A stretch of 64,000 bases of DNA from Psammoneis japonica (GCA_008632985.1 QPGO01000075.1:188517-252516), one strand, 5' to 3'; shown: positions 30,841 through 64,000, counted from the first letter of the stretch. Translations and numbers: made by a program. The notes: generated from the letters alone by a model not told the origin.

Positions 30841-32279
30841 CATGATTCTCCAGAAGATTTCGTTCGCCACCGAAGCAGCCAAACTAACCTTTTGTAAATA
30901 ATAGGTTTGATTTTTCTTCATTTCCTCTTCGTAACTTTCTAATGCATGGAATGGACAGCGCGTCATGAGGTCGGGAGGACGGTACCTGTCATGGCGAGGA
31001 GCTTCTAGCTAGCAAATCGATTTGGTCGAGGTGTTGAGCTTCTAAGAGGTTGTCGATCGATCGAGTGATGAGGTGTGACAGTGACTTGTCGAAAAGTGGT
31101 GCATTTGCGTGTCACCTGGCACACTTAAGTGTGGACAAACATTAAGACAAAATTGGGGATCGAAGCATCCAGCTGCGAATGTTCCCTCTTGTGCCAGTGG
31201 GGGCTCTGCGTGCATCAGTGCTGTAAGAGAATGAGCGGCGGGAGGGCTGCAGCACAAAAAAAAGAGTTTGTGGTTTGTGGTGGCCGTACAAAAATTCAAG
31301 GGCAGGGCACATTCACAGACATCCAGCACTGATGCACAACATTTGCACACTGACATGCTGTCATTGATGTTGTGTCTGCAGACTTTACAGAGCTTTGGTT
31401 GGGTTTGGCTTTGTTGGTGGCAACTTTGAACAACAATGTTGTGAAACAACCGCAGCACATGTGTGCTTGGCATGGAGTGAGATGCACTTGTGCAACAACT
31501 GCTGAAGCAGTGCTGTCAACCATCATGACATCATGTCCACTGTTTTGAGTGTGACAGGTGGAAATCAAGCCAAGGAAAACCAAGTGCAGCATGCTTTGTG
31601 GCAAGAATTTGATGAGAACAAAGTGGGGGGGGGGGGGGGCAGCTGGAGCAGGAGGCAAGAGATTCTTGCACTGGTTGCCTCAAAATGGACAGACACATGG
31701 AGGCGCCAACACAGCAAAAGAAAGGAAAATGGCATGTGAGCAAGATCAAAATTTAGAAGGTTCTCTGGGGCCATTGAGAGGCAGAACAATGGTTGAGAGA
31801 GCATGGCACAGGGGCCAGATTTTGTGGGTCTTTCCTCTGAAGAAGTGTGCTTCAGGTGCTCCATCTTTTCAAATTTCTGGCTCTGGGAATGGTGCTGGAT
31901 TTTCAATGTTGTGGGATGATGGCTTCACAAGAGTGACATTGGTGGATTGTTTTGCTTTGGTCACACATCAGGCCCACCCCTGACCACAGGGGGGCACAGA
32001 ACTGTGGGTGATGTGGCAGCCCATTTTTGCCCAATGAGGGCAGATTTTACACACAGCACTGTGTCCAGTTCCATGGGCACATCTCTTTTGCAGACACTGA
32101 CTTTTCTTGTGCTTTCAGTGAGAAATGATTTTTGCAATCTAAGTTGCTCATGTGTCATGTGAGTTGATGCAACCAAAATGGACAAAACAACAAAGCATGC
32201 TCTGGTCGAACTCAAAGATTTCACATCAATTCATTTGACCCCAAATGGAGCATGTGAGGTGCACAGCTCATGATCTCTT

Positions 32280-33400
32280 TTTTAAACAGCAGAGCAGCTG
32301 CAGCAGACAGAAGCAACACACTGCTGAAATGTTGGAGCTTAAATCACAACAAAACCAAGAAGCAAAAAGGCTGAGCTCTGGCTGGCTTCAATGCAACTTC
32401 AGCATGTGTGGCTGCCCTCATGGCCAGCCATCATGAGGTCACAAACACCAGCCATCACAATGTCATTTCAGCTCCACATTTGGCATTTGTGCCTGTGCTG
32501 GTCTCATTGTGCCAGCAGCTGGCTCTGTTTGTTGGGGCACCAGGAAGCAGTCATTTGCACAGTCTGCAGAGGACAAATGGAGACATGTTTTGGCAAAAAT
32601 GAGCTTGAGGCATGCCGCATTGTGCCCTCTTGCATGCATCACAAGTCATCCCAAATTGCAGAAATGACAAGCTTTGGGTCAATGGACTTGGCCCACAGAC
32701 TCAGCCTTGGGCCTGTGAACACTCAGGTCATGGTGCTGCACTCTGTCTTGTCTTTGGCCTCTGCAAACTCTTGGCTTCTGCTTCTCTCAGACAACAAGAA
32801 CAGCAAACATCTTCAAAGGGAAAACCACTCAATTGTTGACCATCATCATCATGTGCCTGTCAATTTTCTGCTGCCCCCTGACAAAAAAATGTTTTGAGCA
32901 AAAACCTTGCTTGGCTGCACGTGCATCTGCAGAGGAGTGCTGTCATTTGCTTGCTTGGAAGCTGTGTGCTGGCCCATTTGACTCTCACACAAGGAGGTGA
33001 TGCTGGCTCAAAATCTGCTGCATGCAAAAGTTGTGCAGGGCTTTGGTTGCTTGAAATCAAAAAATGACAGCAAACAAGTGTGAACTCTTTTCATGCAATG
33101 AAAATTGTGGAGCTGGACATCTCAGGTGGCATCACCCCATGCACGCACTTGCTGCTTGTCCCTTTTGGGGGCTGACAGGTGTGCATCTGCAAGATCATTG
33201 ATGCCAACTCTCTTGAGCAAGAACAGCACATCTGCTTTTGCACCAGTGCAGCATGTGGACAGCTTCTCAGTGCAAGCTGTGACATTTTCTTCAAATGTGG
33301 TGCAACTCACACAAAGTGCAACTCAGCCAGCTCTCTGCAAAGCCGAGGTGTGCAAAACAACTTTGTGAAGAATGCTCACAGAAAAGTGTGCATGGCTTTT
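32280..33400 (+). repeat. Dispersed repeat, copy 1 (copy 2 at ~62780-63850)
   Basis: Collinear blocks cagcagagcagc...cagacagaa, ctcagccttggg, tgcctgt.aattttctg, ctcaaaatctg, gggctttggttg, cccttttg.gggctg. Confidence 0.75.
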
Positions 33401-33519
33401 GTGCAACGCATGAAAAAAATTGCTCCATTGCAGCTCAGCACTGCAAGACCCTGCCCAGAGCTGGAACAATGTCAGGAGAAGCAGCCGATCCTTCTGAGCC
33501 ACAGCCTCTGCACCACTGG

Positions 33520-33800
33520 TGACCAGCCAGATGATGCCACTTGAGACTGGCCAGATGACACCACTTGAGACCAGCTCTCTGGGTGATGCCAATTGAGGCC
33601 AGACATGCACTGATTGAGAGGACACACCACTTGAGACTGGCTGGATGATGCCGCTTGAGACCAGATGTTTGCCACCACTTGAGATGACACGCCACTTGAG
33701 ACTGGCTGGACAACGCCATTCAACACTGGCGCTGGGCAATGCCAGCTGCTTGATGCCAGCCAGATGACACCATTTGAGACCAGATGTTTGCTGCTGGAGA
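33520..33800. repeat. Irregular minisatellite built on gatgacaccacttgagac(c/t)
   Basis: The core (cca)cttgagac recurs several times with variable, related spacing sequence. Confidence 0.8.
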
Positions 33801-36593
33801 CAACACCATGATCAACAATGCATGTGTCATCTTCTTTCTTGCTTGCTTGCTTTCTTCCCTTTTCTAGAGCAAAAATTGCAAGAATGATCAATGGCTTCAA
33901 GACTGACATGTTCATGGAATGAAGAAAGAAAAGTGGGTGGGCACCAAACAACCAAGGTGGAGTTGCCCAAAGCAGGTGCTGGCAGTGCCTGCTGGGTTCT
34001 TGAAGAGTGCAGCACAGTGGTGGCAATCATGACAATGGCACTCATCAGGCAGGTCACCTTTTCTTTTGCTCTGATGGAAAGAGTTGGAGCTTCCAGTTTT
34101 CACCACAATCAGGGGGCTCTGTGATCTTCAATCTGTCAAGCACAAACCAAAACTGAAATGAGAAAGTTGTGAGAACTGAGTCTGAGTCACAGCAAAATCA
34201 CAGGAAGAAGCTTTCAGCCAATTTTGGATTTCTCTCACCCATCTTTTCATGGATGCACTCATGAGAAAGAAGTGTGTCATGTCACACAATGGCACTTCTG
34301 GTGGGAAAGGTTTGGCAGCAAAATGGAGCATTGGTTCTTGTTGCTGTGCAAGTTGTGAGAATCAGGTGAGAACTGCCACAAAATTGCAGGAAGGATTTTC
34401 CACCCATTTTGGGTTTTCTCTCACCTCTCTTTTAAGTGGTGCACTCATCAGAGAAAAGTGCAGAATGTCATGCGTGCACATTTTTTGCAGGAAAAGTTTT
34501 GTTGACAAAATCAAGCAGCAGCTGTTGCTGCCGCCATGGTTGTTTTTTGAGATGTGTCAGGGGCCAAAGGGTGCTCAGACAGTCATCAGCACAAAGGCAC
34601 ACAGAAAGCTCAAGGAACACCATCAAAAAAGTCTTGGCACTGTTTCACCACACACCATTGTTGGGCTGGATAAAGGACATGTGTCAGCCGAAACCAAGCG
34701 GAAACATCATGGTGTTGCTGCATTCCAACATCAAACGGGAATCATTGGTCTTGATCAATTTGGTTGCTTTTTGATGCTTTGATGGATGTTTGTGTGGGTC
34801 AGGAAAGTTCACATTGTTTCCCATGCACCACACTTTGTCTTTTTGTCTTTCTCAAATGTGTCTTTTTACAAACAAAAATGCAGCAGCTGCAATGGATCCA
34901 CACCTGCTCAGCACCCCTGCTCTGTGGCAAGCATTGCATCCACTGCTGATTGCAACAAGAGCCAGCTGATCTGTTGGTTGATCAACGAGACCTGCCTTGG
35001 CACTGATGTGAGTGTGTTCAGAATTTTGTGTTGCAACATTCTCTTTGGAGAGCCTCCTCAGGGTTCAGGACTGTGGCCAGTCACTCTTGTTGTCCCGGTT
35101 CCTTGCCCTCTTTTGGATGCTGTTTGGCTGTCATGTCATTGAATGGTGCATGTCAGCAGGCTGCATGTTTGGGCACAATGGTCAATCCATCAGCATTGTT
35201 GGGAAACCCAGAGAACAGCTGTCAATCCAAAGTGCTCTCCAGCATCCATTGAAGCTCCCTGGAGAATCAGAGTGACAGGTGTGCCACCTGAGATTGCTTC
35301 CAGTTGCACAAAATTCAGAACACAGATCCACCAACTTTCCACAAAGGACTCATCATCATCTTTTGTCTTCCATGCAAAGCATCCCGCAACCACCATGGGG
35401 ATCACTGACAAAAGGATCATTGGGCAACAAGGAAGGTGGCAGGGTTGTTGGTCTGACACTCTCCAACAGCCTTGTGCTGAGTGATGCTGTCAGTCTCACA
35501 ACAAACTCAATCAAGAGGGTCAATCATGGTCCAGAGGACAAGAACCACAATCATCACAACAAAAGAAATGTGCTGGCCCCACCACTTGTTGAAGTTTGAC
35601 CCTGCGACTGTTGAGTTGAAGGACTTTGTGTGCCTGCATCATCTTGTCAAACAAATCTCCATGTGCCATCATGTGTCTCAGCACAACAAGCCCCAGAGTT
35701 GCCATGCATGCCTTTCTGGGTTGGCTTTCATTCCAGCCAGCCTGCTCCTTTGTCAAAGGAGATGGTGAGTGTTGCTGAGGCTGTTGACAAGGAATCAAAA
35801 AGATCAGGCAAAGGAGGAGTGGTGGCTGTGAGGTCGTGATGACATGGTGACATCTTCAAAGAAAGCCAAACAAGCCTGAAACAGTCCCAGCTGCTGCTGC
35901 AATTAACATGAGAGACAAGCCCATGGCACTGAGAAGGCACTCAGACAGCTCTGCACCGTTGGCATGCACGAAAGGAGGCTCAGCACCTGAAGACAGGCTC
36001 CAGTCCCAGGTGGGACTCATGTGACATTGGGCCTGCAGATCTCCACGTGCGAGCTCTGCAGTGCGAGAATTTAATTGATGGGTGCATTTGCCTTTGACAT
36101 CAAACAAACGACCAAGTTTGCAGTGCACATGCACCTGTCCACACTCAAAGTTTTTGAACAACCACCTGCCCCACACCATTCTAAGGCATTTGAGATTGGC
36201 GCAGAAGAAAAAAAGATTGTCAAAAGTTGTTGAATGGGGATGGCCCAACAACTGCACTGGAAAATGATGCAAAGTTCTACCAAAGTCATGCAGCCATCTG
36301 TGCACACAACATGCGGCACGATCCAAAAAACTTTTGATGTCACAGTTCAGTGGCACGAGGTCCAACCTGGAGCTGGAGCTTGTCCAAAGCACAATTCCAT
36401 CAGTCACCTTGGTTTTTCCAGATGGGCAAAAGGCAGTTGATGATGGTTGCATTTCCTTGCCATTGACAAACATTCCATGCGGCCCACAACAACATCCTTT
36501 CTTGCTGAGCTCCCTTTGAATGGCTTGCTAATGACTGCCCCCGACACTTTTCTGTCTTCCACTTGAGCTTGGCAAGCTCTGAGTCCTGGAGCC

Positions 36594-36795
36594 AGGACTG
36601 CATTGCACATGAAACCTGGAACAATGGTGCCACACAATGTCAAAGGTGTGAGAGTCAAGAGTGCCAACACAAATGGCCAAAAGTGACTTTGAAGAGGACT
36701 GCATTGCACATGAAACCTGGAACAATGGCGCCACACAATGTCAAAGGTGTGAGAGTCAAGAGTGCCAACACAAATGGCCAAAAGTGACTTTGAAG
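36594..36795 (+). repeat. Near-perfect 101-bp tandem duplication
   Basis: aggactgcattgcacatgaaacc...gtgactttgaag at 36594-36694 and 36695-36795; I see one difference (ggtgcc versus ggcgcc). Confidence 0.92.
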
Positions 36796-39484
36796 CAAAG
36801 AGAATCACTGGATCTGTGCTCAGGACAAGCACTCTAGAAAAAATCATCAGATGCAAACACATGGCCCGGTTGACTGGGCAAGATTGGGTTGATGCTGTTC
36901 AGCCATTCCATGCTCTCTTTTCCCTGCCATGACCAAGCTGCTTCAAAGGATGGGCCAGCAAAGTCAAGAGGAAAAACCCAAGCTGACACTGTGCTGCAAC
37001 TTGTGTGGTGTTTTTGTTGTCCTTTAAGGCATGACTTCCTGATGTTGCCCTTGGTTTGAATTTGTCAAAAAATCATCCAGAAGCAGTCTCCTTGATTCAT
37101 TGCTGATGTCTCTGCTGCATCTGCAATCTCTTCAAGCTCTTAGAATGGATTTTCCACAATCACCGCTGCAGTCCAATGTCCGTTCCCATCAACTTTGTGA
37201 AGATCCTCCAGTGTGCTCTGGTCTTTTGTTGCAAAGGCACTCAACTGCTGATGCAGCAACAGTGGGGGGCAGCAGAATGCCCAACTTCATTCTCGTCCAA
37301 ATGGACATGCAGCACCTTGCAAATCTGAAAGTTTGCATCTGACAGGGTGTGAAGGAAAGCAACACTGTCAGTTTAGCTCCCTTGTGTTGCAAAAAGTCCA
37401 CCAGAATCCATGAGGCTTTGACCATGTCTGCACAGACCCAAGCGGTGAACCCACTGAAGCAGTCCAAGATTGTGGGGCTTGATGATGTGCTGCCATGGGA
37501 AACTCTGCATCTTGAGCCATCGCAGCAAGCTCTGGGGCACTGGTTGAACATCAAAGGCCCATGCAATGGCTCAAGGAGTTTTGCCAGCTTGAGACAGTGA
37601 CTGGCTTGTGAGTTTTGTCAAAAGTGCCCTTGTCATCAGCTGATGCATTCCCAGCAATTCTCATTGATCAGAAACTGCATCTGTGAAAGTCACAAAGAAA
37701 AAGGTTTGTGAGCAGAAGGTTGTGAAGAACAAATCCACATCAGCCACAAAGGGTGCAACTTTGATCTCTCCTTCCAAGTCAACATTGTCTCAAGACTGGA
37801 CAAACAAAATGCACTCAGCCAATGTTGGAGAATGGATTCAATCACACAAGACATTGTGCACGCTGTGCTTGCAAGATGCTTCTGCAAAAGATCTGGCAAA
37901 GATTCTTGCTTCAACTGCAAGCACTTGCACATGCTTTTGTTGAACAGCAGTGCCTCCCACAATGCACGCATTTGGAGTTTTGTGACATTGCCATTCACAG
38001 GAAGATGTTGCACTGAGCATTCCTTGTTGTGTGGCAGCCCACACCCCCTGCAAATGGAAAGAAAATGGCTCACAAGAAGGCAGGTTTCTTGACTGCACAT
38101 CCTTTTGCCTTGTGTCCAAAGATGTCATTGAGGTCAACATCCAAGAGCCAATGCAGTGATGCCACAAACCTGATGACAAGCACAATCAACCCCAAAAATG
38201 CAGCTGCAAAGTGAGCGCAGGTGTCAAAGGGAATGAGCACCTGACTCAAGCAGCAGTTCTGTCTCCTGTGTAAAATGTCAGCTTGGCATGGATGTGAGGT
38301 GACAGCTGCTTGCTTGCTTCTTTGCTTGTGTTTTCATTTTCAATGTTTTTTGGGATTTCCACATCTGCCAACATCTCCATTTTTGATTTTTTGCAACACC
38401 TCATTGTCCCTTTTGTCCCAAGTGAGGGCTGTGAAATGACAGATTTCAGATTGCTCTGCCAGCCCGCTTTGTCCTTTTGCCAGCCACCCACTTTTTCCAT
38501 GCAGCGTGTCTGCCCATTTGTTTTTGTTGCAGATTTGTCATGCAGAGACTTTGTTGGCTGCAAGAGCCAATCACAGAAACAACTGTTCCTCCATGTGTGC
38601 AGTGGAAGGATTGCACTGTGTGGAGTGCAGCAGCATTGTCAGCAGTTGTGGCTGCCATCACTGCAAGGCAGGTTTGGGGGGCGAGTCTGGACAGCATTGT
38701 TCATGCCAGGGTCAGTGATGGAGAGGCAGAGGTGGTGGCAGAGGTGGTGTTGGTGGCTGCAGCAACCCTGGCATCAGCTTCAGTGCAATGAGTTGGTTGC
38801 AGGGGCTTTGGATGATCCGTTGGCCAGAACAGAGCTGCAAGAAATGACAGCTGAACAACTGCAATCTTGGACACAACAACCACAAGCCCTTTTTCTCACT
38901 TCCATTTCATGTCACGGTGTCATGCTGGTGTGGTGGTTTCTTGCTGGCTGAACCTCACAGAATGATGATTTCCCCTGACATCATGGATCACTCATGGCAA
39001 TCCACAGCAAATGCTTTGCAGCTGCCTCCTTGGAAACTCTGCTGGCGTGTTGCTGGACAAACAGATGTTGATGATGCAAAGGTTGTTCTCAAGATGCCAT
39101 TTTGTTTGCTGCTGTTTAGACGTGGGTGATCACGTTCGCTTTTCTGGCTTGGCACGCGTTTTACATGCTCACAGAATGAACTTTTCGAGATCGAGGCTTA
39201 CGTCCTCATGCACATTAGAAACGCCGGTCGAACAATCGACAGCGAAGAAAGGCTCCAACTAGTCAATCCCTTTGATTGAGGTTGGAGGATCGCACCGTCG
39301 CCTCCTTTCGTCCCAACGACAACATGCCAAAGCCAAAAAGATCGTCGACATTGATCCCCTGAACGCCGGCCCCCTTTTAGAATCAAAGTTTCTACACAAG
39401 GCTGATTCTATATCGTTCAGTCCTACGTTACTCTGAGGCCACTCTGGCTGCGAACACTAAGGCTGATGATGCTGTTGCTGCGAC

Positions 39485-40850
39485 TTAGTTGACTTCTTTT
39501 GTCGGCTTGATAGAAAAATGAAACAGCCATCGCGTTCCAAAAGCACCATCTCTGTCTTGCATCCCATGTCTTACACGATCAAAAGTTACTCCTTTTGTGT
39601 AAAGGGTGGCTTTCACACCCTTCAACCGCATCACATGCATGTCATCCTCCAATCGGCACCGAAGCACGCGTCCTTTACCGCAAGCCGTCAACACATCTTC
39701 TCCTATGGCCGCCTTGAGCGGACGAATTACATCTTGTGGCTGAAGGTAGCAGAACATGCCAGCAGAAAACACTGACAGTGTGAATTCCTTTTGGTTACAG
39801 AAGCAGGTCAGTTGAGCAACAGTGCAATGGCGCAAGTTTCTCCAAATGTTTACAAATATCAGCCTCCCCTGTATTTGGCACAACTAACAGGGGCCAGTGC
39901 GCGAGAAACCCTGTAGCTCGTCAAAACGGGATAGCTTCATGGCAACCTTTGGCTATTCGGTAGCTAATGCCATCTTTTGGAAGGATCGCAAGAGCGTTAG
40001 AGTTATCCGCCCCATGCCAGTTGGTAACATCTATCTCGTAAAAGCCGTCATCGTCGCGGAATTGTTCTAACGATGCCAACCCCATAGAGTGATGTGGCAG
40101 CAGCACCTGTCGAATAGACATGCTCGAATTGTAGTTGCTCTTCACGCTTGCTTGTCTCCGGATGAAGTAGTCGAAATCACCTGGAAACAGGGTACCCAAA
40201 ATTGGAGAGAAAACGGGAAGAAGGTTTCACGTTCTTCCAAGCAAGAGCAGTTTCCACAGTGCAGCACAGCATGGTGTGCAATTCGCCCGCAAGCGTCCAT
40301 GAAGTAAGACTCAAACCAAGCTTTTCTCCTTGGGACAACTATCCTTCGCGGCTGTTGTTCGAACTGGCGCATGAATCGTCTCGACATTCCAGCAGAAACA
40401 CAAGCGACATATGACTCTTGCAGGTAAGCTCGTGCGTGTCATCCGATCATATCAACCGCCACGAAACTTAAATCTTCCCTGTGTTCGACAATTGTACCTG
40501 GACCATATGGTGTCGCGTAGTCATCACCGGGCGTAAACGATACTTTGTTGCTGCTTTCCGCACCCCAGGAAGAGAACAGGGAGGCTCCTTCCTGAAGCTT
40601 TGGAAGCGTGGGGGGGTTGTACCTTGAAATGTCCCTGCCGTGAATTCGGGCATAAATCGGCTTCCAATTACGAATTTCACCGGTCACGTCATCGCCCGCA
40701 TGGCTCTGCGCCTTTCCCTTTCCGTCGACGTCTCCGCTGTCGTTTAAGGCACCATCCTTCCTCTTGTGCACGACGTTGCTTTGGCTCTTTAAGTGCGATG
40801 AATTCGTGGTAGTCGCATGAGGATCAGCATCAATTTCTGCATCTTGTAGT
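39485..40850 (-). pseudogene. Fragmented host-type gene with repeated T[P/A]YGxG modules
   Basis: ATPYGPGTIVEHR and VLTACGKGRVLRCR modules lie in ORF pieces broken by frameshifts and stops. Confidence 0.55.
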
Positions 40851-41180
40851 CATTCAAGGAAGGTGCGGGAACAATGATGTCGTATTGCGGACTTTCTGCA
40901 ATCAGCTCTGGCTAAAAAAACTCACTGTTGTGAGTCGATGCATCCTCGGTCACTTCAGTTTCAAGGACCGACTCTAGAGCCGCATTCTTGTTTCGCGAGC
41001 GGTATTTGCGGCTACCTCTGTCTTCTACCGGTACTGAGATGCAAGCTCGCTTACCTGCACGCCCAGAGGCCGCCAGTCGAGTGCTACCTCATACATGTTG
41101 AAAATTGGATCAAATGACTTAATGGTTGCAATCCCATATGGCGTTCTTACTTTTGGGATCATCCGGCTTTTGAGTGACGA

Positions 41181-42070
41181 TCATAGATTATGACCCTGAG
41201 CGATATAGACCTCTGCGGAGTCTTTGCCTTCATCCGTTGTGCTGGCCATACCTCCCTTCGGAGAGGGCAAACCTGTAATTTCAATGTTGGAAATGGGAGA
41301 GTTGCTGAGTGTCTTAGCTACCTTGTTCATTGGTGCGGCATTATCCTTAAATTTTGGAAGACGGGATAGGTTTGCAAAAGCCTTGTGGCGCTGCGCGCCT
41401 CGGGGGAGGGAATCGAGATGACGGTCTGGCAGTAGAGGACGGTGGCGTCGGATCACCAATTGACTTCATCGTGTCTTTCTGCAGAGTCGTCGGGTTGCCT
41501 CGTCGAGACGCTGACTTGTTTGATGTCTCTCTAGAGCTTTGCAGTACTCACTTTGGTGGTACTGCAATTAACTGTTCCAACTGCAGAAACGACAAGTTTA
41601 GAAGTGTGAGATATTAAAAATCGACTAATCATGAAGATCGAGGCGCGTCAAACGACTTACCACCATAATTTCATTGCGACACCATATCCATCCCCAGTAA
41701 CAACACCGTTGATCCCCGCACCAATTACTTTAGCTCCTACTATGCTTGTTGCATCTTCAACACCTTATTGTCTCAGAGCCCCTGTCACAGCACTGAGGCT
41801 ATCACCCAAACCTGCTCCTAAATTTTTCAACACATACCATGCAGCAGAACCCACAACATTCCCAGTCAGAAGCACGTACTGGTAGTCGCCTTCTTTACAG
41901 TTCTCGTCGCCTTCACACGATATAGTACCAGATACTTCCATTCTTGAATGCTCACCGCTGTCATCAACGTGACGAATTTCAGGCAACCGAAAAGAAAATG
42001 TCGCAAAACGTGAGAGACGACAGTCATTTTCTCGAACAAATTCACTTCGGCACGGTTTTCTTACCTTGAT
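41181..42070 (-). pseudogene. Gene remnant with intron-like signals and an internal stop
   Basis: Coding-like run ...GAGLGDSLSAVTGALRQ*GVEDATSIVGAKVIGAGINGVVTG followed by a GTAAGT donor. Product is unknown. Confidence 0.4.
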
Positions 42071-43089: not shown

Positions 43090-43620
43090 CATGCTGAATG
43101 CCGTGTTTGTGGCATGATGTTTGAGCTCGGACCTCGACAACGAAGACGTCACCTTGGCGACATTTTTTTCGTTTTCCACGGTTACCGTAAAGCGTACGTA
43201 GGAATTAGTAATAATTTGGAAAGTACCGAGTTCCCACGAATCTTTTACATACAAAATCATGGTACAGTAGGAATTCTACACGGATACACGAAAATGACAG
43301 TGATTGAGAAATTTAGCAACGGTCACGACACAAACAAAAACTCTCACGCTTTTTCTTTCGCGCTGTTTCGATCACAACTCGTCGTCTCGCACGATGTGTT
43401 GTTGTTCGCCAAGCAACGATTGCCGCGATCGCCCAGGATGGCTCGCCCTTCTTGCGGACAACAGAGAGCCAGCTCTTGTTTGGTGTTCCACAACTCATCA
43501 TGCTTGTTGACGTGTTGTCTCCAGGTGGCGCAGGTGTTGCCCAGTTGAGTCCAGAGGTCGGGGCAAATTGAGTGCGTCTCTCCCAGCCTTGAGTCCATGT
43601 CACTCTCGTGTCTTTGAGTG
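43090..43620 (+). repeat. Dispersed repeat copy A; the 5' half retains TpA and CpG
   Basis: 43090-43345 aligns with 48326-48596, and 43365-43520 aligns with ~49440-49710. Confidence 0.88.
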
Positions 43621-50223: not shown

Positions 50224-53200
50224 TAATTTCTATAATTTTTTCTACGTAAAATTTCTACGTGATTTTTGCACTAGTGCACATGGCTTGTTGGACCAGCCTT
50301 GAGCCATGGGATCCATCGGAAAAAACCGAGCAGCATGGTCAGCCAGCAAGTGGTCACTGGACGTGTCCAAATGAGCAACCATTCATTCAAAGACCAAGTG
50401 CGTGTTGCTGTTTGAGTGATCCATTTGTTCTTGGCATCAAAAAGAAAGTGTTGCCCTTGCTGGGGCCACTGGTTTGTGGCAGCTGCGGCAGTGACTTCAT
50501 CACGAAAGAGCTGCATTTGATTTGACATTTGGTGTGTCGTTGATGTTGTGACGAGCTTGACAACAATTGTGCAAGATTGTTTTGAGGCTCTCAGAAAGGC
50601 TCTTCAGCGATCCTTCACAGTTGAAATGAGGGCTGAGATGCACCAGCAATGTTGGAAAATGGATTCTCTGGAAGACAACATTGTTTGTTGTCGATCCAAA
50701 AAATGATGGCTTGCACAGTCTTGGGTGCAAATGTCTGCTCTCTGTCCTGGAAAACAGGCTTGCTCTTCAACACCCATCACTTTGAACCACCTCATCCTTT
50801 TGTGATCTTCTTGAGAGAGAGTGCAGCAATGCTGCTCATCTGCATGGAAGAAATGGGGCATTGTGAGCTCATTTGCTGACTGCAAGCTGAGGCAGCATGC
50901 CAGCAAGCATGTTGACACCAACAAAGAATCCTTGGATTGGCAAACTTTGTCAATGGTTGCCTTGACAAGAGTGACTTCATTCAGAAGGGCCATGACGATG
51001 TGTCCTTCGGACTGCCGCCAAAATGCCAGAATGTCTTCTCGATGCCACAGCATCACCTTTCATTGGATTGCCATCTCTGAAGCCCTTCTTGCCTGCCATG
51101 CAGCTGCAATGTGCCACATGATTGGTTGTGGGTTGTGATCTGTGCCATCACTGACTGTGCCTTTGGCAGGCACCCTGTCATGCTCTGCAGCGGTGCTGTC
51201 CCAAACAACCTTGCACCAACAAAATCAACTCTTCCAAGAACACAAGATGCAAATGGATTGGACTTGTGTCTTGAAAAAGGAAATGGCGGATGTTGTGAGA
51301 TTGATGTGCAACAGTTGAGAGAGTGAGGACACAGATGCACCCACCTGCAGAAATTCTCAGACTTTGCCAAAGATCCATGTCACCATGTGTTTTGCAATTT
51401 CAGCAGTTGGTTCATGCCATGCCACTGCACTTTCCATTTGGTGTCTGGCAAGCCCAGCATCTTGGCGCGGATTTGCAATCAGAGCAGGCCACATGATGGG
51501 GTGACTTTCTTCCTCAACAGCCTTGTTGACAGTGCCAAGCAACTGCGCAACAAACACACTTGTCTCGACCGCCAAAGCAGCAAGTCCCTCCCAAAATTTG
51601 CCAATGAGTGGGATGAAATGCTCCACTTCCATTTGCTTGAATGCACGAGGAAGAAAGATCCAATTTGAGCAACACCAAAAGGCATCTTTGATGGGAAGTT
51701 TTCTTGGCATTTTTGAAGTTGACAAAGATTCCTTGGGCTGTCCTCAGCCTTGGACAGGCAGCAGACGATCCATTTGCATCAACGCCAACACCGTTTTGAA
51801 ACAAAAGATTAAAATCACAAAGCGTGCAGTCAAAGCATGCTGTCTGCTGGTGAGCAATGGGATTTGCTGCATTTCCTCCTCCGTGGTTTGGCAAATTCAT
51901 GAAAACTGAACATCTTGATTGGAGTTCCTTGTGTGTCTTTTGTTTTTGGCTGCTTCTCAGCATGTTTCTTTGCAGACTTGACTGCATCTTTGCAGCTGCC
52001 TTCCTGCTTCCTGAGCACAGACATTGCCTGAAGTTTCTCCGCTTTCTTTCACCACGATTGTAGAAAAACAAGCTGATCAGCACAAAAACGCAGCTTTGTC
52101 TCCTTGCAATCCACAATTGGGTCCAAGAGTCCATCCAAATGGCTTGCAAGATTAACAAGTGCCATGTGTGAGAATCCAACAGCTTCCTTTCAAACATTGT
52201 GCAATGTGCTGTTCCACACACTTGACACACTTGTCTGAGCTCTTCCAATTTGTAAGATTGCATGAATGATGCAAGCATCCGGCCCCACAACATGTTGCCA
52301 ATGAGTTGCAAAGCTGCTCCGCCACAAGTCCCTGGTTTTTTCTTGAGCTCACCTCCCATCAAATCACAATTGTGAAATCCTGTGCATCCATCACAAGCAA
52401 CAAACATTTCTGGTGCAGGGAAAACAGCACAGAGAATGCGGAGCCTGTGATGGCTTGTTGTTGCAGTTAATTGCAAACAAGGCCTGCATCATGACAACTC
52501 CAAAGCAAGCGGCATGGAAATGGACTTCACATGGAGAGATGGAACAAAACAGAGTCCAGGAGAAGCAGCAAGCTGAAGACAGATGCAACATCATCTTCTG
52601 TTGTGGTGGTTGCAAGCCAAGGCCCAGAATGGGAGGCGTCTTTGGAAGTGAGATTGTCGAAGGCGGTCTGATTGCCAGTGCATTTGGGGGTCTTCCCAGT
52701 GCAATTTGCATGCAAAAGCAAACACATGGGATCTGTCCAGTGTCGCCAAATGCCCTGATTGCACTGATTGACAGACTGTTTTAGTGCAAATTCTGTGCAA
52801 CTTTCTTCGACAGTCTTGCTTCCAAAGATGCCCCCCCAAAAAAGATTTTTTGGATTCCAAAAAAGATGTCAAAGGGAGTTGCAACATTTGTGATTGCATG
52901 CTGCAAATTGCTGAACACTCTTGTCCCTTTTTGTGCATGAAGCGCCTTGGATTGCCCTGAAGAGGAAAATTTCCATTCGTTGCAATTTTGCACCAGAGCC
53001 ACGCAGAAATTTACAGAGCCACATCTTGCTGCTTTCCAATGCTCCTCCCACCTCCAATCTTGACCTCCAACAAAAACACAGTGAAACACGGGGATGTGTC
53101 CGACAATGGCAGCACCCATTGTCGTCAACTCTGCTGATTTTCACAAATCTTCCATGCTTCAGCATGCTCTTCATGGCAACAAAAGAGAGCTTTCTTGTTT

Positions 53201-55497: not shown

Positions 55498-58400
55498 ATG
55501 AGTGATCAGAGCAGCAGCCCCTTGTTCCCCTCCCCGGATGACGCACCACACGGAATGGACGACATGTCCTCCATTTCATCAAACCACAGCATGCATGGAG
55601 TTGAACTTTCAGCAATGAATGATTTGGATGTTGGCGGTGGTCAATCCTTTGCTGCAGTGTTGGACGTGACAATGGAGGAGGAAGAGGACATTCACGATGA
55701 GGATCAACGTTTGGGGATCAGGTGTGACGCTCCTGCAGAAGAGGCCTTGGCTTCTACTCCCTCTTTGACAAATCTTGACGGAGCTTTCGTAGAGTTGTGC
55801 AAGAAGATCATGGACACACGTGGTGCTCCCCTGGAATTGCACGACTGCATTGTTGATTTCATTGAGAGGCACACTGGCAACAGCAACATTGAGCTTGGTG
55901 CAGCTCTGCCAAGGAGAAAAGAGTTGATGCGCACCTTAACTGAGCATTTCCCTCTTCCACCCAGCGAGTCCATTCCTGTCACTCTAGAAACCAAAAATTT
56001 CAAAACCGGTTTGCCAAAACGAGTGTCAGTGCCAAGATGGGATTTCACAAAGGTTTGGGAATAATTTTTACTCGATCCTCACCTGTGGTGCAGCAGAGAG
56101 AATGTGGCCGATCCAGACAATCCTTTTGGGGAGTGCAAAGCGAAGGGACCGGATGACAAGTGCCTTTTGGCGGGTGAGTGGTGCAGGCGTAGTTACGAAG
56201 AACGGACAACTGACCCGGAGAAACAATTTCTCGAGTGCAATGTCATTCACCTTGACAAGACTGGTGGGACACAAGGGATGGGATCACATTGCGGAGAACC
56301 AGTGATCATGACCTCTGTGCATGTTGCCTTCAACAAATGGTTGGACAAGAGTGTCTGGAAACCAATTGGTTGTCTCCCGGATTTGGAAAAGATGTCTCAT
56401 CTGCGGCAAAGAATCTCTCAAACAATCGCAAGGCGGAGAAGGGACGCTCGTCAAGAGACTGCCACACTTGCTTGCGTGTTGTTTTGGAGCCACTTTTGGA
56501 AGTCATGAGAAAAGGAGGCATGAAAACATGTGCGCAACAAGGGGATGAGATGCGATGCCTCCACGTGATCCCACTGATTGTTCTGATCACAGGAGACGCA
56601 AAAAGTGGCAACTGTCTCGTCGGACGATGCGGAGGTCACAACTGTCGTCAACGTTGCTGTCGTTTTTGCCTCACTGGCTTCAACAAACTGGACGACCCAT
56701 GGATTGAATGCGAGTTTGTCCGAGGACTGGATCTCCACCAAGTGCAAACTAAGGCCAACGACGACAACAGATCAGACCAAGAAAGGAAGCACTGGTTGGG
56801 CATCTTGCATTGCCTCAAGCAACACAACGCACCCACCAACTGTCTTTTTGAGGCAGACTTTGGCGCACAACCATGCGGCGCCACCCTTGCGACAGCAAGT
56901 GACATGATGCATCTCTTTGAAAATGGCACCTTGAAAAGGGCAGTCAATTCATTTGTAGACAGCATGACACCTGTGGTCGCAAGTGAGGTGGACAGCACAG
57001 TGGAAAGGATTTTCAGCAATCACCGGTCAACTTGCAAAGCATCCTTTTTGCGAACAAACTTCAAAGGAGGAGCAACGTCGCTCACCTTCCTCAACTCTCA
57101 CCACTGGGCTGGAATGGCTTTTGTTTTCTACCTTCTCCTGTCAACCAGCGAGGGACGAAATGCATGTGAGTCATGCTTCCTTGACGAGGACGCAGACGAA
57201 CCCATTGTTCCAGAGAATCGCAAGACACCCAAAGCAAACTTTGAGAGTTGCTGCCAACCTGGTGAGTGCTTGGACTCTGACGATGAAAGGTCAGAGGAGT
57301 CGAAGAGGGTGACTGGGACGAAAATGAGGATGAGAAAGAGGAGAGTGAGGCTGAGGATGGTGACGACAACCAAAAAAAGAAAAAATGCAAGGGAAAAAGA
57401 CTTGACTGCAGCGTCCGGCAATTCATTCAATTGCTCGAGGACCTTCTTGTCTTCCACGCATGGCACAGGCTGGGCAATCCACCCATCACAAGCGCAACTC
57501 CCAGTTCATCTGTTCAGAAAACAAACAAGAAAATCCGTCTCCTCATTGACCGGATGGTGCAATTCGTCCCGCGAACAGAAGGATGTGGGAGGAAGCTTCA
57601 AAAGCTTCATGAAACTCTCCATCTCCCAGTGTTTCTTTGTTGTTGCCGACATGCGATGAACTTTGACACAGGCTTGGGGGAGTGTCTCTTGAAAGACTTT
57701 TTCAAGCTGCCATCATCTGCCGCACAACAACGCAACCTCGACAGTTTTCTGAAGCAGGTCGTGTCGCGCATGGAGGACCAAATGAGGCTCAACGCTGCAA
57801 TTTCAGCTGACAGTTGGATTTTGCCAACTGGGAAAAAGGAATCATCAAGAGTCAGGATGGACAATCACACGCTGGGAGGAAGTGCATTCACTCTCACCTG
57901 CAATCGAGGGATCGGCGCTGTGACGTTTGAGTGGAACAGCTTGCATGCTGTTGCCAAGTTCATCCTGTGTTGCTGAACTTCATGTCGGAAAAGTGGGAGG
58001 ATTGTGTTGGTGAAGACAGTGAAAACACACACCTGACTTGTAAGACAGAGTTTTACAATGCAAATGGGAGGGATGCGTGCCGTGCACACCCCAGTTGCAA
58101 AAGCAAAGGACCATGGCATGACTTTGCCTGTGTGACCTTTGGCACAAAAAGGGCGATCAACAGTTTCCCTCCCGTTTGCTGTGTTTCTTTGAACAGGAAG
58201 ACACAGGATCGATTTTTGCAGTGGTCCATCCAACCACTTGTCAAGCTGACCAGAGAACTGTGAGGCAACGGTGTCAGCATGCAGACTTGGTTGGTCGCTG
58301 GCAGCTTGATCACAAACGAAACAACTGGCTTTTTTCAATGCCTGAGAAGACTCAGTGTTTACCTGAGTTGCGTGTTGTCCCTGTCGAAGCAATTGGGGAC

Positions 58401-58520
58401 AATGTTTTGGTTTATGAAGAATGTCCAGGAGCAGCAGAAGCACAAGAAAAGGCCCCATTTGTTTGGGCTGCACAGGACAGAAGGAAGTGTTGGTCAGATT
58501 TGTTTCTAAAACAGGGTGCG
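55498..58520 (+). mobile_element. Plavaka-like transposase pseudogene
   Basis: DKT...EPV, WKPIG.LPDL, R..H.CL, ITGDAKS...GR, D.MH.F..G, KLHE..H and RAHP.....PW.D segments spread over several frames with stops. Confidence 0.7.
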
Positions 58521-61500
58521 CGTGTCAATCCATCATTCACTCACAGTGATTTCCCAACTCTTTCTTGCAAACATGATGAATTTGATCCTTTCAGAATTGG
58601 CAAAGTCATTGTGGTGCACGTGAAGCAGTGCGGTGCGAGCACCTTCCATTGCTTTCGTTCTGATGTCTTCTTCTGAAACTCCAAGATGAGCTTCTTCCTG
58701 ATCGGAAGGCTTTCCCAACCACCGACACGACAGGAAACTCTCGATGCATCAGATGTGTGCAGTTTTAGAGCAATTGCTTCCTCACAGATTCTATGCAGTG
58801 TCCACTCACACGGTCCACCCAGTCATCCTGTGCCATGAAATGTTCCCTGGCAGCCACAATTGCCTGCTGAAAGTCGGGCGCTGTGGTCAGGCTGGTTGAC
58901 AGCCACCAATTGTGCCTCGATTTGCAATGTCAGCTGCAGGACCCTTTCTCTTGCCACGGCTTCTTTGTCCACAGCCCGGATCGCGGTCCATGTCCCTCCC
59001 CGCATTTGATCTGTGCCTGGCCTCAGATCATGCAAAGCTTGCCACTGTCGCTGCAAGGCAACATCTTTCCTTGTCAAACAGTCGAGGGCCTCGTGGAGCA
59101 ACGTGATTGTGTCCTTCAGGACGCGCTGTGGCTGTGTTAGATGTCGCCTTCGAAGGAGTGGCACGGCACGGCGGTGGATGGATTTGTCAATGCTGTTAAT
59201 CGCAGATTGCTCCCTCTCCACTCTTGTGGCATCTGTGTCAGAATTTGCCCTGAGGCTTCTCAGAAGCAACGTCGAGTCACAGCTGTGCAGCATGTGCAGC
59301 CTGCATTCTGATTTTTGATGTCCTGCAACGGAGATTGGGAGCCCCAGTTCTTTTGCGTCAAATGCGTTGCCGCGAAGAAAGTGTTGGAAACTCATTTCTG
59401 CTTTGCTGCAACTTTCCACTGCAACAACACAGTCATTGTCTGAATGATGTGTCTTGATCGATGACTCAATGCACTGCGCACAGATGTGCTTAAATTCGTG
59501 AGTGGCTGTTGCTTGATTTAACAAAGCACTCTCAAGTGCGGTCGTTGCAGCCACACCAGCACGACGGGCTTCTGCCATTGCTTCCGCCAATCTTGACACA
59601 GCAGCCTTTGCATCCTTTGCTCTCTGTTCCTCTGAACAATGAGCAGCATCAGCATGAACAAAACCATCAATTGTCTCCATCATCCGGCGATGGAAATCCT
59701 CATCAGCGGATGGACGGAGTTCATCTGACATGGTTTTCTTCCAATGCTCTGATTGTTGTGGTCATGGGTCCGCCATTGCATTCACCAGATTGGTCGTGCG
59801 TCAGTCACAAAATTCTGGTTTCTGTGGAAATGTGCCAGAGTGGTGCGTGGGAGAAGTTGCATGCACGCCTGGTGGGATTTGGAGTTTTAAACACAAAAAC
59901 CCACCAGACGCGTGTGTGACTTCTCCCAGGGAAATCCTGCATGAGATTGCACCGGGAAAGGGCAGTGCAGAGTGCAGAATTGATGGAAGAAAACATTGTG
60001 CGAACATGCATCAGGAGAAAGGGTGCATGCACTGGAAAACAACATGGATTTCTACATGCGCATTAAGGTGCGTGAAGAACACGTGGGTGCCTTCAAGTGA
60101 CGCATGCAAACAATCACAAAGAAACATTTGGAAATGGAGACAGCATGGAGAGAAGTCAGAAACATGGATCCAAAACAAAGTGACACACGATGAAGGCGAC
60201 GGCTGCAGGATCAATGAAAAAGAAGGATTCGGATGGAAAGACGCCGGAGACGGTGAAAACAGGCGGTGCCAAGACGAAGAAGGAAGAGAAAAACAGGACG
60301 GGCAAAATGAAGAAAGAGAAAAAGAAGCAGACTGCACGACGTCAAGAGGGGAGCAGCGACACGATTCTGCATTTCGAGGGACCTCTTCCTCTCAATGATG
60401 TTCACCCAAATGCAAGAAATGCAGTGTGGCTTTTTTGGAACGGTGATGAGGAAACATCCAACGCGGCAGCGGCGTGTTTGAAATTCTTGCAAGAGAGCAG
60501 ACAAGACATGTGGAATGAAGAGGACGATGCAGACGAACAGGCTATTGGAGCACAGTTGTTGACCAAATGATTGGTGCACACTTTGCATGATGAAAATTTC
60601 ATTGCATGCAATTGCAATGTTTGGCTTGTCGTTAAAGATCGTCAGTTGTTGAGAAAAAGACAGAGCACAAAAATTAAAAAGCATCTGTGTTCAAACATGA
60701 AGAACAGCAGGAGATTGACAATTGACCAAACAACAAAAACCGTCATGTGCAGACAAGCAAATTTTACAATGTGGCAATGTGATTTTATCATGCATGCAGA
60801 TGTTACGATGTCGTGCACTCTGATGTGTGGGACTCCCGAAAATTCCCCGGGATTGCTGCCTTTTGCCACAATTTTTGCGGGAAGTGTAAATTCCCGGGGA
60901 ATCACCATGAATGATGCCACGTCATGCACACACTTCACACATGCACAAAAATTTGTGCATTGGAAATTCCCGTGCTTCCCCTCTCATGCATTTCCATGTG
61001 CACTTTCTGCAGTGCGTGCAGGGATGTGCGGAGCCAGACAATTGATCAACCACAACAAAAACAGGCAACATGCCATGGCATGCTCACGTCCCATTTATCA
61101 TGATGGCTTTTGCCCATCAATCATGACACCATTCAATGCACTCAACAATGTGGTTGAATGGGATCCACAGCAGCACAAAACATGGGATGAAATGTGGTTG
61201 CTCATGTGCAGAATGTCAGCATGATTGATTGTCAGCTGTTGGTTGTCATTTTGTGGTGCAGTCTCAAATGTGAGCCATGAGGCATGCAGTGAAGGCCAGG
61301 GCAAAAGCAGAGTCATGCACAGCCAACAATGACAATGAGGTGGATTGCATGGTCACCCTTGCTCTTCCAATTGTTGTGTCACATGTGCAGAATGAAGCAC
61401 ATCGTCCAAATCACTCTTGTGTCATGCAGTCACAAATGCAAGCCATGAGGCATCTGGGGTGAAGGATGAGGCAAATCACAGCCACACATGCCTGACAAAA

Positions 61501-62779
61501 ATGTGGTGGATTGATTGCACACAGGAAATGAGATCAACCCATGTTGCGCAACGTGACAGGGGAGTGAAATTGACACATTGGGTGTCCTCTGTCATGAGCT
61601 CCTCACGATTTCACCATGTGCACATCTTGGGGGGTTTGCACACATGTTGGGGGTTTGCACGCATGTTGAGGGAGTGCATGTCACATGACCCCCTGCATGC
61701 ACACCCCATGCATGCACCTGTGCACGTCATGCCCATGTCATCACGGACACCTTCCAAGGTGCTTTGCATCATCACAACTGCGTTGCCCTCCCTGCATCAT
61801 CCTGACATCATGATGTTTCAATGTTTGACCATCAAAACAACTGCTCTGCTTCACCAATTGCAGCACACCGTCTTTTCAACATCGTTTTTTACAAATGCAT
61901 GCAGGATCTTCCCTGACGTCAGTGACAACAGATGCCATGGCAGTGCCCATTGCTGCAGCAGGTTCTTGCCATTGTGCAAAAGTTTCTTTGTGCTTTTTAG
62001 CCGCAACAAAGAGGGCTGTTGAGCACTGTTGCATTTGACAGAAATGTGTCGCTGCCCAAAGAACTGACAACTGTCATCCCACACCAACTGAACAAGCTGC
62101 CACAGCCTGCTCAAAACATTCTCCTGCACAACAACCTTGATTTTTTCTGTCGCACAACCACACTTTTTTCTTGTTGTTCTTTTTCCACTTGCAGCCACAC
62201 CCATCTTTCTTGCACACTAAACCCACAACTTCCCACCAACTCTCACAAAGACAGAAATGATCCTGGTTTTTGTGATCATGACAATTGCACTTCAAACTGT
62301 TCTCAATTGCAAGTCATCATGCACTTGCTGGCTTTCTTGAGCTCCAACAGCTGCTGGCAAGCCAGAGTTGGTGGTCAGAGGTGTGGCAAACTGCACTGGG
62401 GCAGTTTGCTCTTGCACAGCAGGCTTGCATCTTTTTTGCTTGACCAGAGCCCTTCAGTCATTCTGGCTTTGACCACCTCTTTTTGCTGTGGAAAAGCTCT
62501 TTTGCATTTTTCTTTCATTCTCTTCCAACTTTTGCAATGATGTTCATTTTTAATTTTCTCCCTCTTGAATGGCCATGGGTGTTGTTTGCCAAGCATGGCA
62601 AAATCAGCATTGATTTTTTATCTGCAACTTCAAGAAAATTGCTGCAGGCACACAGTGGCTGGCTTTGCAAGGCTGCAGACCTCCCCAACTTTGACACACA
62701 CAAACAAAGATTTCACATCTCACATGACCCCAAGTCAATGAGGGACAATGCAAGGAACATTGCTGCTCATGATTTCCAT

Positions 62780-63850
62780 TTTAGACAGCAGAGCAGCAAC
62801 AGACAGAAAAAACACATGCCAGATGCAAGAAGGTGAGAGCTGCAGCTTCCTCAACCAATGCTGGAGAGAAATCTGGCCCTTCTTGCCTTCAACCCAAACA
62901 GAGCCAGTGGGTGCACAAAAAGAGGCAGCTGAGCTGTGGCTTCAACACAGTGTCACCAGCACGTGCAGTTGTCCTTGTGATGAATCTGTGCCAGATCATC
63001 ACAAGTGTCAGTTGTCACAAAGCCATTTTGGCTCCATTTTGCACATCTGCACTTGTGCTGGTGGTGCATCTCATTGTGCCAGCAGTGCCCCAGTTGTTGC
63101 TGCTGATTGCAGCTCTTGGGCTGTCATTGCAATGGAAGAAAAGCTGCAAGCTCTGTTTGGGGCCAGAGGAAGCAGTCATTTGCACAAGGTAAATCAAGGT
63201 GGTGTTTTTGCCAAAAAATGAAAATTGGGTGTGCTGTGCTGTGTCATGTCCATGGGCTCAGCCTTGGGTCCATCAACTCGTGTTTTTTTTCTTCTGTTGT
63301 TGGGCAAAACAGCTGCAAACAAAGGGGCATTTCTCAGTTGTCAATCATCTTCATCACACATGCCTGTTAATTTTCTGACCCACAAAAATGTTTTTTTTAG
63401 CAAGCTTGGTTGGCTGTGCACATGTGTGCATGCAGACGAGCATTGTTGTTTGCTCCACATTGAAGTGTGTCAGTCAATTTGATCTGTGTCTAAAGGAGAC
63501 AGCATTGACTCAAAATCTGTGACATGCAAGAGTTGCTTGTGCGGGGCTTTGGTTGTTCATAAATCAAAAACAACAGCAAGCAAATGTGACTTGAAATTTG
63601 TGGAAAATGAAAGCATGGAGCAGGATGTCTCTTGCTGGGACACATTGTCTCATGCACACACACCTGCCACTTGCCCCTTTTGAGGGCTGGCAAGGCCACA
63701 TGCACAAGGTTGTCAGTGTCCTCTCTCTTGCAAGCTGAGTGAGTGAGAATGGCATGCCAGCTTTTGCACCAAGGCAGCTTGTGAACAGGGCAGCTTCTCA
63801 ACTCTGCAATGTTTTCTGCAAATGTGCTGACAAACAGTGTGCAAAACAAC
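62780..63850 (+). repeat. Dispersed repeat, copy 2 (copy 1 at ~32280-33400)
   Basis: Same collinear blocks as copy 1; both copies are TpA- and CpG-depleted. Confidence 0.75.
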
Positions 63851-64000
63851 AAAACACACCTGACAGCAGTGCTTCTTTTGGATGACAGGGAAGAAAAACT
63901 TGTGTTGGTCACAAATGAGGGACATTTTGCATTCCCCATGGAGCCTTTTCTCAATGTTGCCCCTTTGTGTGCTGCTGCCATTTCCATTCCGGCGTGCCAC

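Follow-up and report, generated by a model that had tools for sequence, protein, structure and literature searches.

Programmed mutation of mobile DNA has long been thought special to fungi, which have repeat-induced point mutation (RIP), and to animals, which have the APOBEC deaminases. We present the case of a 64,000-nucleotide stretch of nuclear DNA from a diatom, Psammoneis japonica (GCA_008632985.1 QPGO01000075.1:188517-252516), which we name the window, in which tracts carrying transposon remnants have lost nearly all their TpA (TA) dinucleotides to TpG (TG) and CpA (CA), next to host genes where TA is normal. The closest described system is the TpA hypermutation of Bigelowiella natans (Mettrop et al., bioRxiv 10.64898/2026.01.13.699255). 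As the main text of that preprint reports, mutation-accumulation lines show a roughly 1000-fold higher mutation rate in two integrated viral regions than elsewhere in the genome; 230 of the 231 de novo changes in the two regions are A>G or T>C, all 230 are at TpA, and only some lines are affected. The same text describes clusters depleted in TpA and enriched in CpA and TpG, an enrichment of reverse transcriptase (RT) and DDE domains among TpA-poor coding sequences, and a hypermutated block from a nucleocytoplasmic large DNA virus (NCLDV) that is single-copy, silent and has a rho of 0.45. It names no known enzyme; its authors propose an ADAT2-like DNA adenine deaminase and cite one report of amphioxus ADAT2 DNA editing. 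CpG, flanking context and diatoms do not figure in that main text.

We divide the window as follows, with no strand assigned, where O/E is the ratio of observed to expected dinucleotides.

1-4990: TA-depleted tract T1, TA O/E 0.11, CG O/E 0.58.
5050-31040: gene island 1, an unmutated internal control, TA O/E 0.56, CG O/E 1.01; NUDIX, DsbD-like membrane protein, class II aldolase, UCH protease, Sec6 and others.
31390-39110: TA-depleted tract T2, 19 TA in 7721 bp, TA O/E 0.04, CG O/E 0.12; left edge graded over 31043-31386.
39120-43310: gene island 2, unmutated, TA O/E 0.58, CG O/E 1.00.
43320-64000: TA-depleted tract T3, 100 TA in 20,681 bp, TA O/E 0.07, CG O/E 0.49.

Pooled values refer to the three tracts together (33,392 bp) and, as control, to the two gene islands together (30,182 bp; 5.05-31.04 kb and 39.12-43.31 kb). 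An earlier note on this DNA had reported that TA is nearly absent and TG and CA enriched in three transposon tracts, with normal TA in the gene island, and the counts bear this out. The tracts hold 152 TA (O/E 0.07), whereas the gene-island rate predicts about 1279, and the islands hold 1156 (O/E 0.56); TG and CA have O/E of 1.71 and 1.70 in the tracts, and of 1.18 and 1.20 in the islands. Dinucleotide ratios, which the note had proposed to compute genome-wide, show within the 64-kb window that TA sets the tracts apart from the genes and also that CpG (CG) is depleted, which the note had not mentioned: the tracts have 823 CG at O/E 0.42, against 1.01 in the islands. In 500-bp windows, the TA O/E ranges are disjoint, from 0.00 to 0.29 in the tracts (65/65) and from 0.32 to 0.86 in the genes (58/58). 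The longest run without any TA is 1538 bp, at 50272-51810. Expressed per 1000 dinucleotides as tracts minus genes, the losses (TA -33.8, CG -33.0) match the gains (CA +33.0, TG +31.7), and the G+C content stays equal, at 0.484 in the tracts and 0.478 in the genes. AA shows no depletion, with O/E of 1.24 in the tracts and 1.15 in the genes. There are smaller shifts, with GC up and AT, GT and TC down in the tracts, which would be neighbour effects of the TA and CG conversions.

The TA loss has borders at about 4994-5044, at 31043-31386 (graded), at 39117 and at 43314. Those of the CG loss coincide with them on three sides, and at 43.3 kb the TA loss begins about 0.6 kb before CG thins. The CG depletion is uneven from tract to tract, strongest in T2 and weakest in T1. 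The Spearman correlation between TA and CG O/E is 0.77 across all windows and 0.42 within the tracts.

The direction of the change can be read from two element remnants and from a pair of repeat copies.

1-1584, plus strand: C-terminal part of a Copia polyprotein (RT and downstream), Pfam RVT_2 E 3.8e-20, with an open frame at 37-1584 of 515 codons.
43120-43345, plus strand: repeat copy retaining TA and CG, just outside T3, sister of 48377-48596.
48377-48596, plus strand: mutated repeat copy within T3, sister of 43120-43345.
55519-58556, plus strand: Plavaka/KDZ (class II) transposase remnant, placed by tblastn, which contains a 467-codon open reading frame (ORF) at 56256-57659.

For the Copia protein, we polarised 301 columns conserved in 119 homologues, and the window copy differs at 34 of them. 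Tyr columns are the clearest case. Sixteen are conserved in the RT region, and in the window copy nine have become Cys (TAY to TGY), three His (TAY to CAY) and one Phe, with only three kept; several further changes belong to the same class (V>A, I>M, T>M, R>H and A>V). Counted by alignment cells in which homologues have Tyr, the window copy shows Cys in 1207, His in 524 and Tyr in 517 of 2670, while in 48 of 51 related metagenome Copia loci Tyr-to-Cys does not exceed 0.08 of the aligned cells, nor Tyr-to-His 0.06. At the DNA level, we polarised the Copia copy against 24 outgroup loci, with five control loci. Of its 22 ancestral TA, five are kept, nine are TG, five CA, two TT and one CG, and the control loci retain 0.78-0.87 of theirs. 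Ancestral CG is kept at 0.86 (controls 0.76-0.95), and GA, CA, AA, GC and TT are kept at the level of the five controls. The repeat pair gives a comparison inside the window, where 13 TA and 13 CG of 43120-43345 correspond to TG or CA in 48377-48596, and the reverse case occurs once. In the KDZ ORF, Tyr makes up 0.2% of residues (2.8% in relatives) and Cys 5.8% (2.3% in relatives); in the 74 alignment cells where Tyr stands in 12 relatives, the ORF has Cys 26 times and Tyr twice, and these cells share columns and are not independent.

Four independent polarisations, by Copia protein, control loci, outgroup DNA and sister copies, thus agree: the TA-poor state is derived, and TA disappears more quickly than CG and much more quickly than all else. 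The comparison with B. natans can then be made feature by feature. The changes are A>G/T>C transitions at TpA, as the Tyr columns show and as do the 14 of 22 ancestral TA that are now TG or CA. They are confined to TpA, in that only TA is lost above control level in the Copia copy and AA is not lowered. TpA depletion is coupled to a gain of CpA and TpG in clustered blocks over 33 kb. The affected blocks are mobile DNA beside normal host genes, with Copia and KDZ remnants inside them and the origin of T2 excepted. The earlier note's central claim, of A-to-G conversion at TpA on both strands in mobile-DNA tracts, is supported by Tyr columns, outgroup DNA and sister copies alike.

The mutated proteins are disabled by missense change, through the loss of Tyr, without new stop codons. 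TAA and TAG drop from about 16 to 3-4 per kb (both strands) in the tracts while TGA rises, and this removal leaves many long meaningless ORFs there; it also leaves the 515-codon Copia frame still open despite the loss of 13 of the 16 conserved Tyr.

The loss of CpG is a separate, slower layer on the same domains. CG has gone to TG and CA in the same tracts, as expected of CpG decay, and explains only the CG half of the gain in TG and CA. The two losses are separable in both directions. The Copia copy has lost 17 of its 22 ancestral TA with CG at control level, and six metagenome Copia loci (L006, L010, L038, L048, L049, L050) show CpG loss alone, with CG O/E of 0.13-0.27 and TA O/E of 0.52-0.72, so that in other organisms the two decays occur separately. 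Transposons of diatoms are CpG-methylated. Among surviving CG in the tracts, CCGG and GCGC stand at 0.81-0.83 of their gene-island count and TCGN at 0.35-0.39; this survival by flank indicates that CpG decay is fastest with A/T flanks.

TA survival also depends on the flanks. Relative to gene-island density, it is 0.58 for TTAA, 0.34 for CTAA, 0.23 for CTAG, 0.05-0.15 for mixed contexts, 0.04 for GTAC, 0.01 for ATAT and 0.00 for ATAC, and nearly the same order recurs in three mutated metagenome Copia loci compared with 48 normal loci of the same family. The flank effect behaves as though it belonged to the duplex site, with loss strongest at RTAY, intermediate at mixed sites and weakest at YTAR (R, purine; Y, pyrimidine). 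We also tried a single-strand TAY motif, in which the A is followed by a pyrimidine; it fits the survivor counts and fails on the outcomes (20 favoured-side against 17 other-side changes), and we rejected it. The TG and CA products are randomly interspersed (runs-test z of -1.0, -0.4 and +1.05 in the three tracts), and no strand-coordinated TG or CA clusters were found by this test in the three tracts. There are therefore no long strand-coordinated bursts, or else many rounds have blurred them.

Comparisons between near-identical mutated copies show how the changes accumulate. Two mutated Copia copies from different assemblies, L028 and L030, are 94.5% identical with 99 differing columns. Forty of these columns are 20 adjacent doubles in which one copy has CA and the other TG; 25 are differences between TA and TG or CA, eight between CG and TG or CA, 14 are other transitions and 12 are transversions. 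A CA/TG double would arise from one ancestral TA (or CG) hit on a different strand in each copy. The sister copies were thus struck independently. Among the 40 best-supported of 352 differences between the window and contigs of run X1, a DNA run, the 33 at 31.4-39.1 kb include three CA/TG doubles (six places), four TA to TG/CA differences, 13 CG to TG/CA differences, three other transitions and seven transversions. They look like haplotype or near-copy differences, although allelism is not provable from them, and they suggest that both decays are still running. TA loss is much faster than CpG decay and background change.

The affected domains include the DNA between recognisable elements, and they end about 100-350 bp from the gene islands. 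Inside and outside the tracts, some short elements are spared, two of which we annotate here, with no strand assigned.

18252-19273: element of about 1 kb with 125-nt terminal inverted repeats (92% identical), in gene island 1; TA- and CG-rich, unmutated.
49833-50274: insertion of about 440 bp resembling a miniature inverted-repeat transposable element (MITE), with 35-nt terminal inverted repeats (86% complementary), nested in T3; 17 TA, normal density, CG kept.

The MITE-like insertion is flanked by TA-free runs of 425 and 1538 bp. Together with the 226-bp copy at 43.1 kb, these make three short elements, of 0.23-1 kb, with normal TA and CG, which are either younger than the last mutation round or too short; the MITE-like insertion is a possible time marker for that round. 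In run X1 most of T2 has the word depth of single-copy DNA (about 52-80), as have the genes on either side. Repetition by itself does not appear to set off the process, and the depth of T2 and the short repeats that keep their TA give no backing to the earlier note's description of the process as repeat-targeted.

The signature is also seen outside this assembly. With even depth of about 55-62, contigs of run X1 cross the borders between genes and tracts and agree with the window; over 31625-34136 they differ from it by five letters and two gaps. More weight falls on relatives from other sources. Three of 51 metagenome Copia relatives carry the signature, with TA O/E of 0.13, 0.27 and 0.31 and the same Tyr-to-Cys/His pattern; the remaining 48 loci have TA O/E of 0.52-1.02. 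Among 150 KDZ relatives in a public protein library, three carry it as well (P0319, P0371 and P0328). These are proteins of 1127-1290 aa with mutual identity of 28-39% and 0.1% Tyr, and they have His or Cys where relatives have Tyr. Two favour His and one Cys, which may be a strand bias in single copies.

We propose that a mutational process of the host, limited to certain regions, acts on its silent, transposon-rich DNA. The process would convert A:T of TpA steps to G:C (TpA to TpG or CpA), on either strand at random, until the DNA is nearly TA-free, and ordinary decay of CpG to TpG/CpA would act more slowly on the same domains. Its chemistry may be an enzymatic deamination of adenine to hypoxanthine at duplex TpA sites, its domains may be chosen by chromatin or methylation state and not by repeat homology, and it may be the same process as the TpA hypermutation of B. 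natans. We hold a targeted mutational process at TpA very likely to be the cause, and the explanation as a whole seems to us probable. For the enzyme, an adenine deaminase is the leading candidate, an assignment that we make tentatively and that could well be right. It is also the best remaining of the mechanisms put forward by the earlier note, although the flank preference predicted for a deaminase working on single strands fails.

Several points weigh against this proposal. Because TpA is palindromic, a change of A is indistinguishable from a change of T on the opposite strand. At polarised sites, the favoured flank does not set which base changes (the 20 against 17 given above), contrary to a single-strand deaminase with a preference for the 3' neighbour. 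The survivor contexts could in part be new TA from other mutations. The unmutated 440-bp insertion inside T3 bears on the targeting rule, since it may be too young to have been hit, or short elements may escape. Finally, run X1 may be the source data of the assembly, in which case its agreement is not independent support.

Other explanations deserve to be weighed against adenine deamination. In the main rival, the target would be the thymine of TpA, with a TET/JBP-type oxidation to 5-hydroxymethyl- or 5-formyluracil that mispairs with G and gives T-to-C changes. All our results fit T-to-C equally, given the palindromic site, and the flank effect acts as a property of the duplex and not of one strand. 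Kinetoplastid telomeres and dinoflagellate DNA carry hydroxylated thymine at TpA, and 5-formyluracil tends to cause T-to-C mutations. These modifications are not documented to have mutational effects of this intensity, however, and the scanned ORFs of the window include no Tet_JBP domain, which says little on the rest of the genome; we judge a thymine target unlikely. Biased repair or error-prone synthesis in heterochromatin, either by a T:G glycosylase or very-short-patch-like repair towards G:C or by DNA polymerase eta (Pol eta) changing WA to WG (W, A or T), appears more improbable still. In tracts that are CpG-decayed, T:G mismatch repair should be busy, and very-short-patch repair is held to deplete CTAG in Escherichia coli by changing TA to CA or TG. 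Here CTAG is instead among the best survivors (0.23, against 0.00-0.04 for ATAC, ATAT and GTAC), and a repair bias towards C:G ought to spare CpG, which is in fact lost. About three quarters of TA are gone in the Copia copy without measurable excess change elsewhere, which is hard to achieve by replication errors alone. The Pol eta motif is WA, and with AA not depleted (1.24 against 1.15) the suggestion of Pol eta in the earlier note is not supported. GC-biased gene conversion was also considered, and dropped: G+C is unchanged and TA is the only A/T-containing step lost.

Editing of RNA followed by reverse transcription would have an ADAR-like enzyme make A-to-I changes in double-stranded transposon RNA, later copied into DNA. 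Copia is a retrotransposon, and ADARs favour a U before the edited A, as discussed in the B. natans preprint (bioRxiv 10.64898/2026.01.13.699255). The KDZ remnant, however, is class II, a transposon without RNA passage, and it is equally affected, as is the non-coding DNA between elements, so the effect is not restricted to retroelements and transcript editing with reverse transcription is close to excluded as the route; the change acts at the DNA level. Whole domains are filled, and they end near genes and not at element ends, AA is not depleted, and near-total conversion on both strands is unlike transcript editing, all of which leaves this reading very improbable. We think it just as improbable that no mutation process is involved and the tracts are TA-poor by origin, as foreign DNA with its own composition, or by selection against TA. 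T2 and much of 43-64 kb have no identifiable relatives that would show their ancestral state; elsewhere, Copia relatives of the same family are TA-normal (48/51, O/E 0.52-1.02) and keep Tyr in most cells, and the replacement of Tyr in a catalytic domain means that selection for function is not acting. The state is moreover common to unrelated element classes, a TA-normal sister copy exists, and losses and gains balance against the gene islands. To a sequencing or assembly artefact, in which a modified base is misread in the tracts, we likewise give very little credence. No sequencing platform is recorded for the assembly or for run X1, and X1 may be the source data; on the other side stand the even-depth DNA contigs (about 55-62) that cross the borders in agreement with the window, the signature in three metagenome contigs of other assemblies and in 3 of the 150 KDZ relatives, and the haplotype-like differences with independent TG and CA outcomes at one site.

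Turning to the elements inside the tracts, the Copia frame aligns by tblastn to residues 1353-1848 of a relative of 1859 aa (P0122) at 75% identity. ORF 56256-57659 has 562 relatives at E <= 0.001, of which the best has 46% identity and one has 72% identity over 155 residues. Six of ten scanned relatives pass the Plavaka Pfam cut-off and the hit of the window ORF itself is sub-threshold; it is the homologues that confirm the identification. Two further features are annotated in the tracts.

36594-36795, no strand assigned: tandem duplication, 2 x 101 bp, 99% identical, both units TA-free, in T2, from self-comparison.
47595-48194, plus strand: candidate remnant of a hAT dimerisation domain, marginal, Pfam PF05699 22.2 bits (cut-off 21.4).

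A homologue search with the hAT-like ORF found none. Apart from this marginal hAT hit and the sub-threshold Plavaka hit, a Pfam scan of 71 ORFs in 43-64 kb gives only two sub-threshold matches that look like chance. None of the 23 stop-to-stop ORFs of T2 (31.4-39.1 kb) matches Pfam, so that T2 has no recognisable element, and one T2 ORF searched against viral contigs had no relative there, a result that neither establishes nor rules out a viral origin of T2. The earlier note had several unrelated element classes affected, which stands for Copia (RVT_2) and for Plavaka/KDZ (by homologues), is marginal for hAT, and finds no recognisable element at 31.4-39.1 kb. Self-comparison of the window yields only four repeat pairs, one of them informative for a family analysis within the window. 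The 101-bp duplication in T2, both of whose units are TA-free, arose after the TA loss. Run X1 reaches a very high word depth around 35.7-37.0 kb, the region of the 101-bp tandem units.

The gene islands hold ordinary host genes. The class II fructose-bisphosphate aldolase at 9446-10579 has 84% identity to a Triceratium transcript and 80% to an Odontella aurita protein, with no identical protein on record. Long ORFs without a Pfam family lie at 11413-13422 (plus strand, 669 aa), 23562-25892 (minus strand, 318 + 451 aa) and 27098-27817 (plus strand, 239 aa), and may be diatom-specific genes. No tRNA genes were found in the window. Run X2, which resembles spliced cDNA, covers the gene islands; over 31.0-39.0 kb it is absent and over 44.3-49.0 kb nearly so, and this blank over the tracts is not evidence about expression. 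In the gene that adjoins the left border of T2, X2 contigs skip two short GT..AG introns, 29908>30002 (93 nt) and 30205>30318 (112 nt).

Beyond this locus, diatoms and chlorarachniophytes may share an ancient defence at the DNA level, an "adenine editor" possibly found across the stramenopiles, alveolates and Rhizaria (SAR). Its enzyme would read duplex TpA (best RTAY) in silent DNA marked by chromatin and rewrite it to G:C, and so kill transposons and integrated viruses by erasing Tyr codons and TA-containing signals without making stops. We regard this as possible but somewhat doubtful. If true, the shared editor would be either a naturally occurring adenine deaminase of double-stranded DNA or a new kind of mutator directed at thymine. 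Two lineages so distant give a comparative handle for finding the gene and would let the enzyme be found by phylogenetic profiling. A natural A:T-to-G:C editor of duplex DNA is of interest to genome-defence biology and to base-editing technology. The completed signature in a diatom, together with the traces in environmental contigs, suggests that the system is widespread in marine protists. There is also a practical consequence for diatom genomes, in that TA-free tracts, where only TGA stops are left, inflate ORF predictions and bias gene and repeat finders based on dinucleotides.

Among known systems, adenine deaminases (TadA/ADAT2-3, ADAR and the base editors) make A-to-I changes that read as A-to-G. 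TadA and early adenine base editors prefer a target A that is preceded by T or U. In nature these deaminases act on RNA, and here the flank effect is duplex-site-like and AA is untouched. APOBEC3 and AID are likewise host deaminases that hypermutate mobile or viral DNA; they change C to U in TC or WRC on single strands and leave strand-coordinated clusters, whereas here the site is TpA and there is no strand clustering. Deamination of 5-methylcytosine would account for the CG to TG/CA changes in the same tracts, with borders that nearly coincide, and cannot remove TA. RIP in Neurospora and other ascomycetes is alike in being a dinucleotide-specific burst of transitions in mobile DNA that leaves neighbouring genes intact and hits copies independently. 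It makes TpA from CpA, lowers G+C and creates stops, whereas here TpA is destroyed, G+C is unchanged (0.484 against 0.478) and TAA and TAG are removed; the earlier note had excluded fungal RIP on its direction, rightly so. RIP is triggered by duplications longer than a threshold length and depends on a RID-type enzyme and a premeiotic stage; the single-copy depth of T2 speaks against a simple repeat dependence here.

The B. natans system is the one that matches in kind. As far as the preprint's main text goes (bioRxiv 10.64898/2026.01.13.699255), both have A>G/T>C changes only at TpA, giving TpG and CpA, and both have blocks of foreign or mobile DNA beside normal genes. The host there is a rhizarian and here a diatom, a stramenopile; the targets are giant-virus and virophage inserts there, and Copia and KDZ remnants with unidentified DNA here. 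The rate in B. natans was measured in cultured lines, and the process here is known from sequence differences only. Depletion is near total in the diatom (O/E 0.04-0.11), compared with a rho of 0.45 in the NCLDV block. A literature search that covered subscription journals only partly turned up neither TpA depletion nor hypermutation for diatoms, and it turned up the signature for B. natans alone. The earlier note's claim that the phenomenon is undescribed holds in this sense for diatoms, and not for the TpA-only hypermutation itself, which has been measured in B. natans. What the diatom adds is anatomy: the RTAY/YTAR flank rule, an accompanying CpG decay that is independent of the TA loss, the sparing of short elements, and inactivation without stops. 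The flank rule and the sparing are described only here, and CpG does not figure in the main text on B. natans. The diatom thus shows a signature of the same kind in a distant second lineage, where it has gone much further, lies on transposons and is layered on CpG decay.

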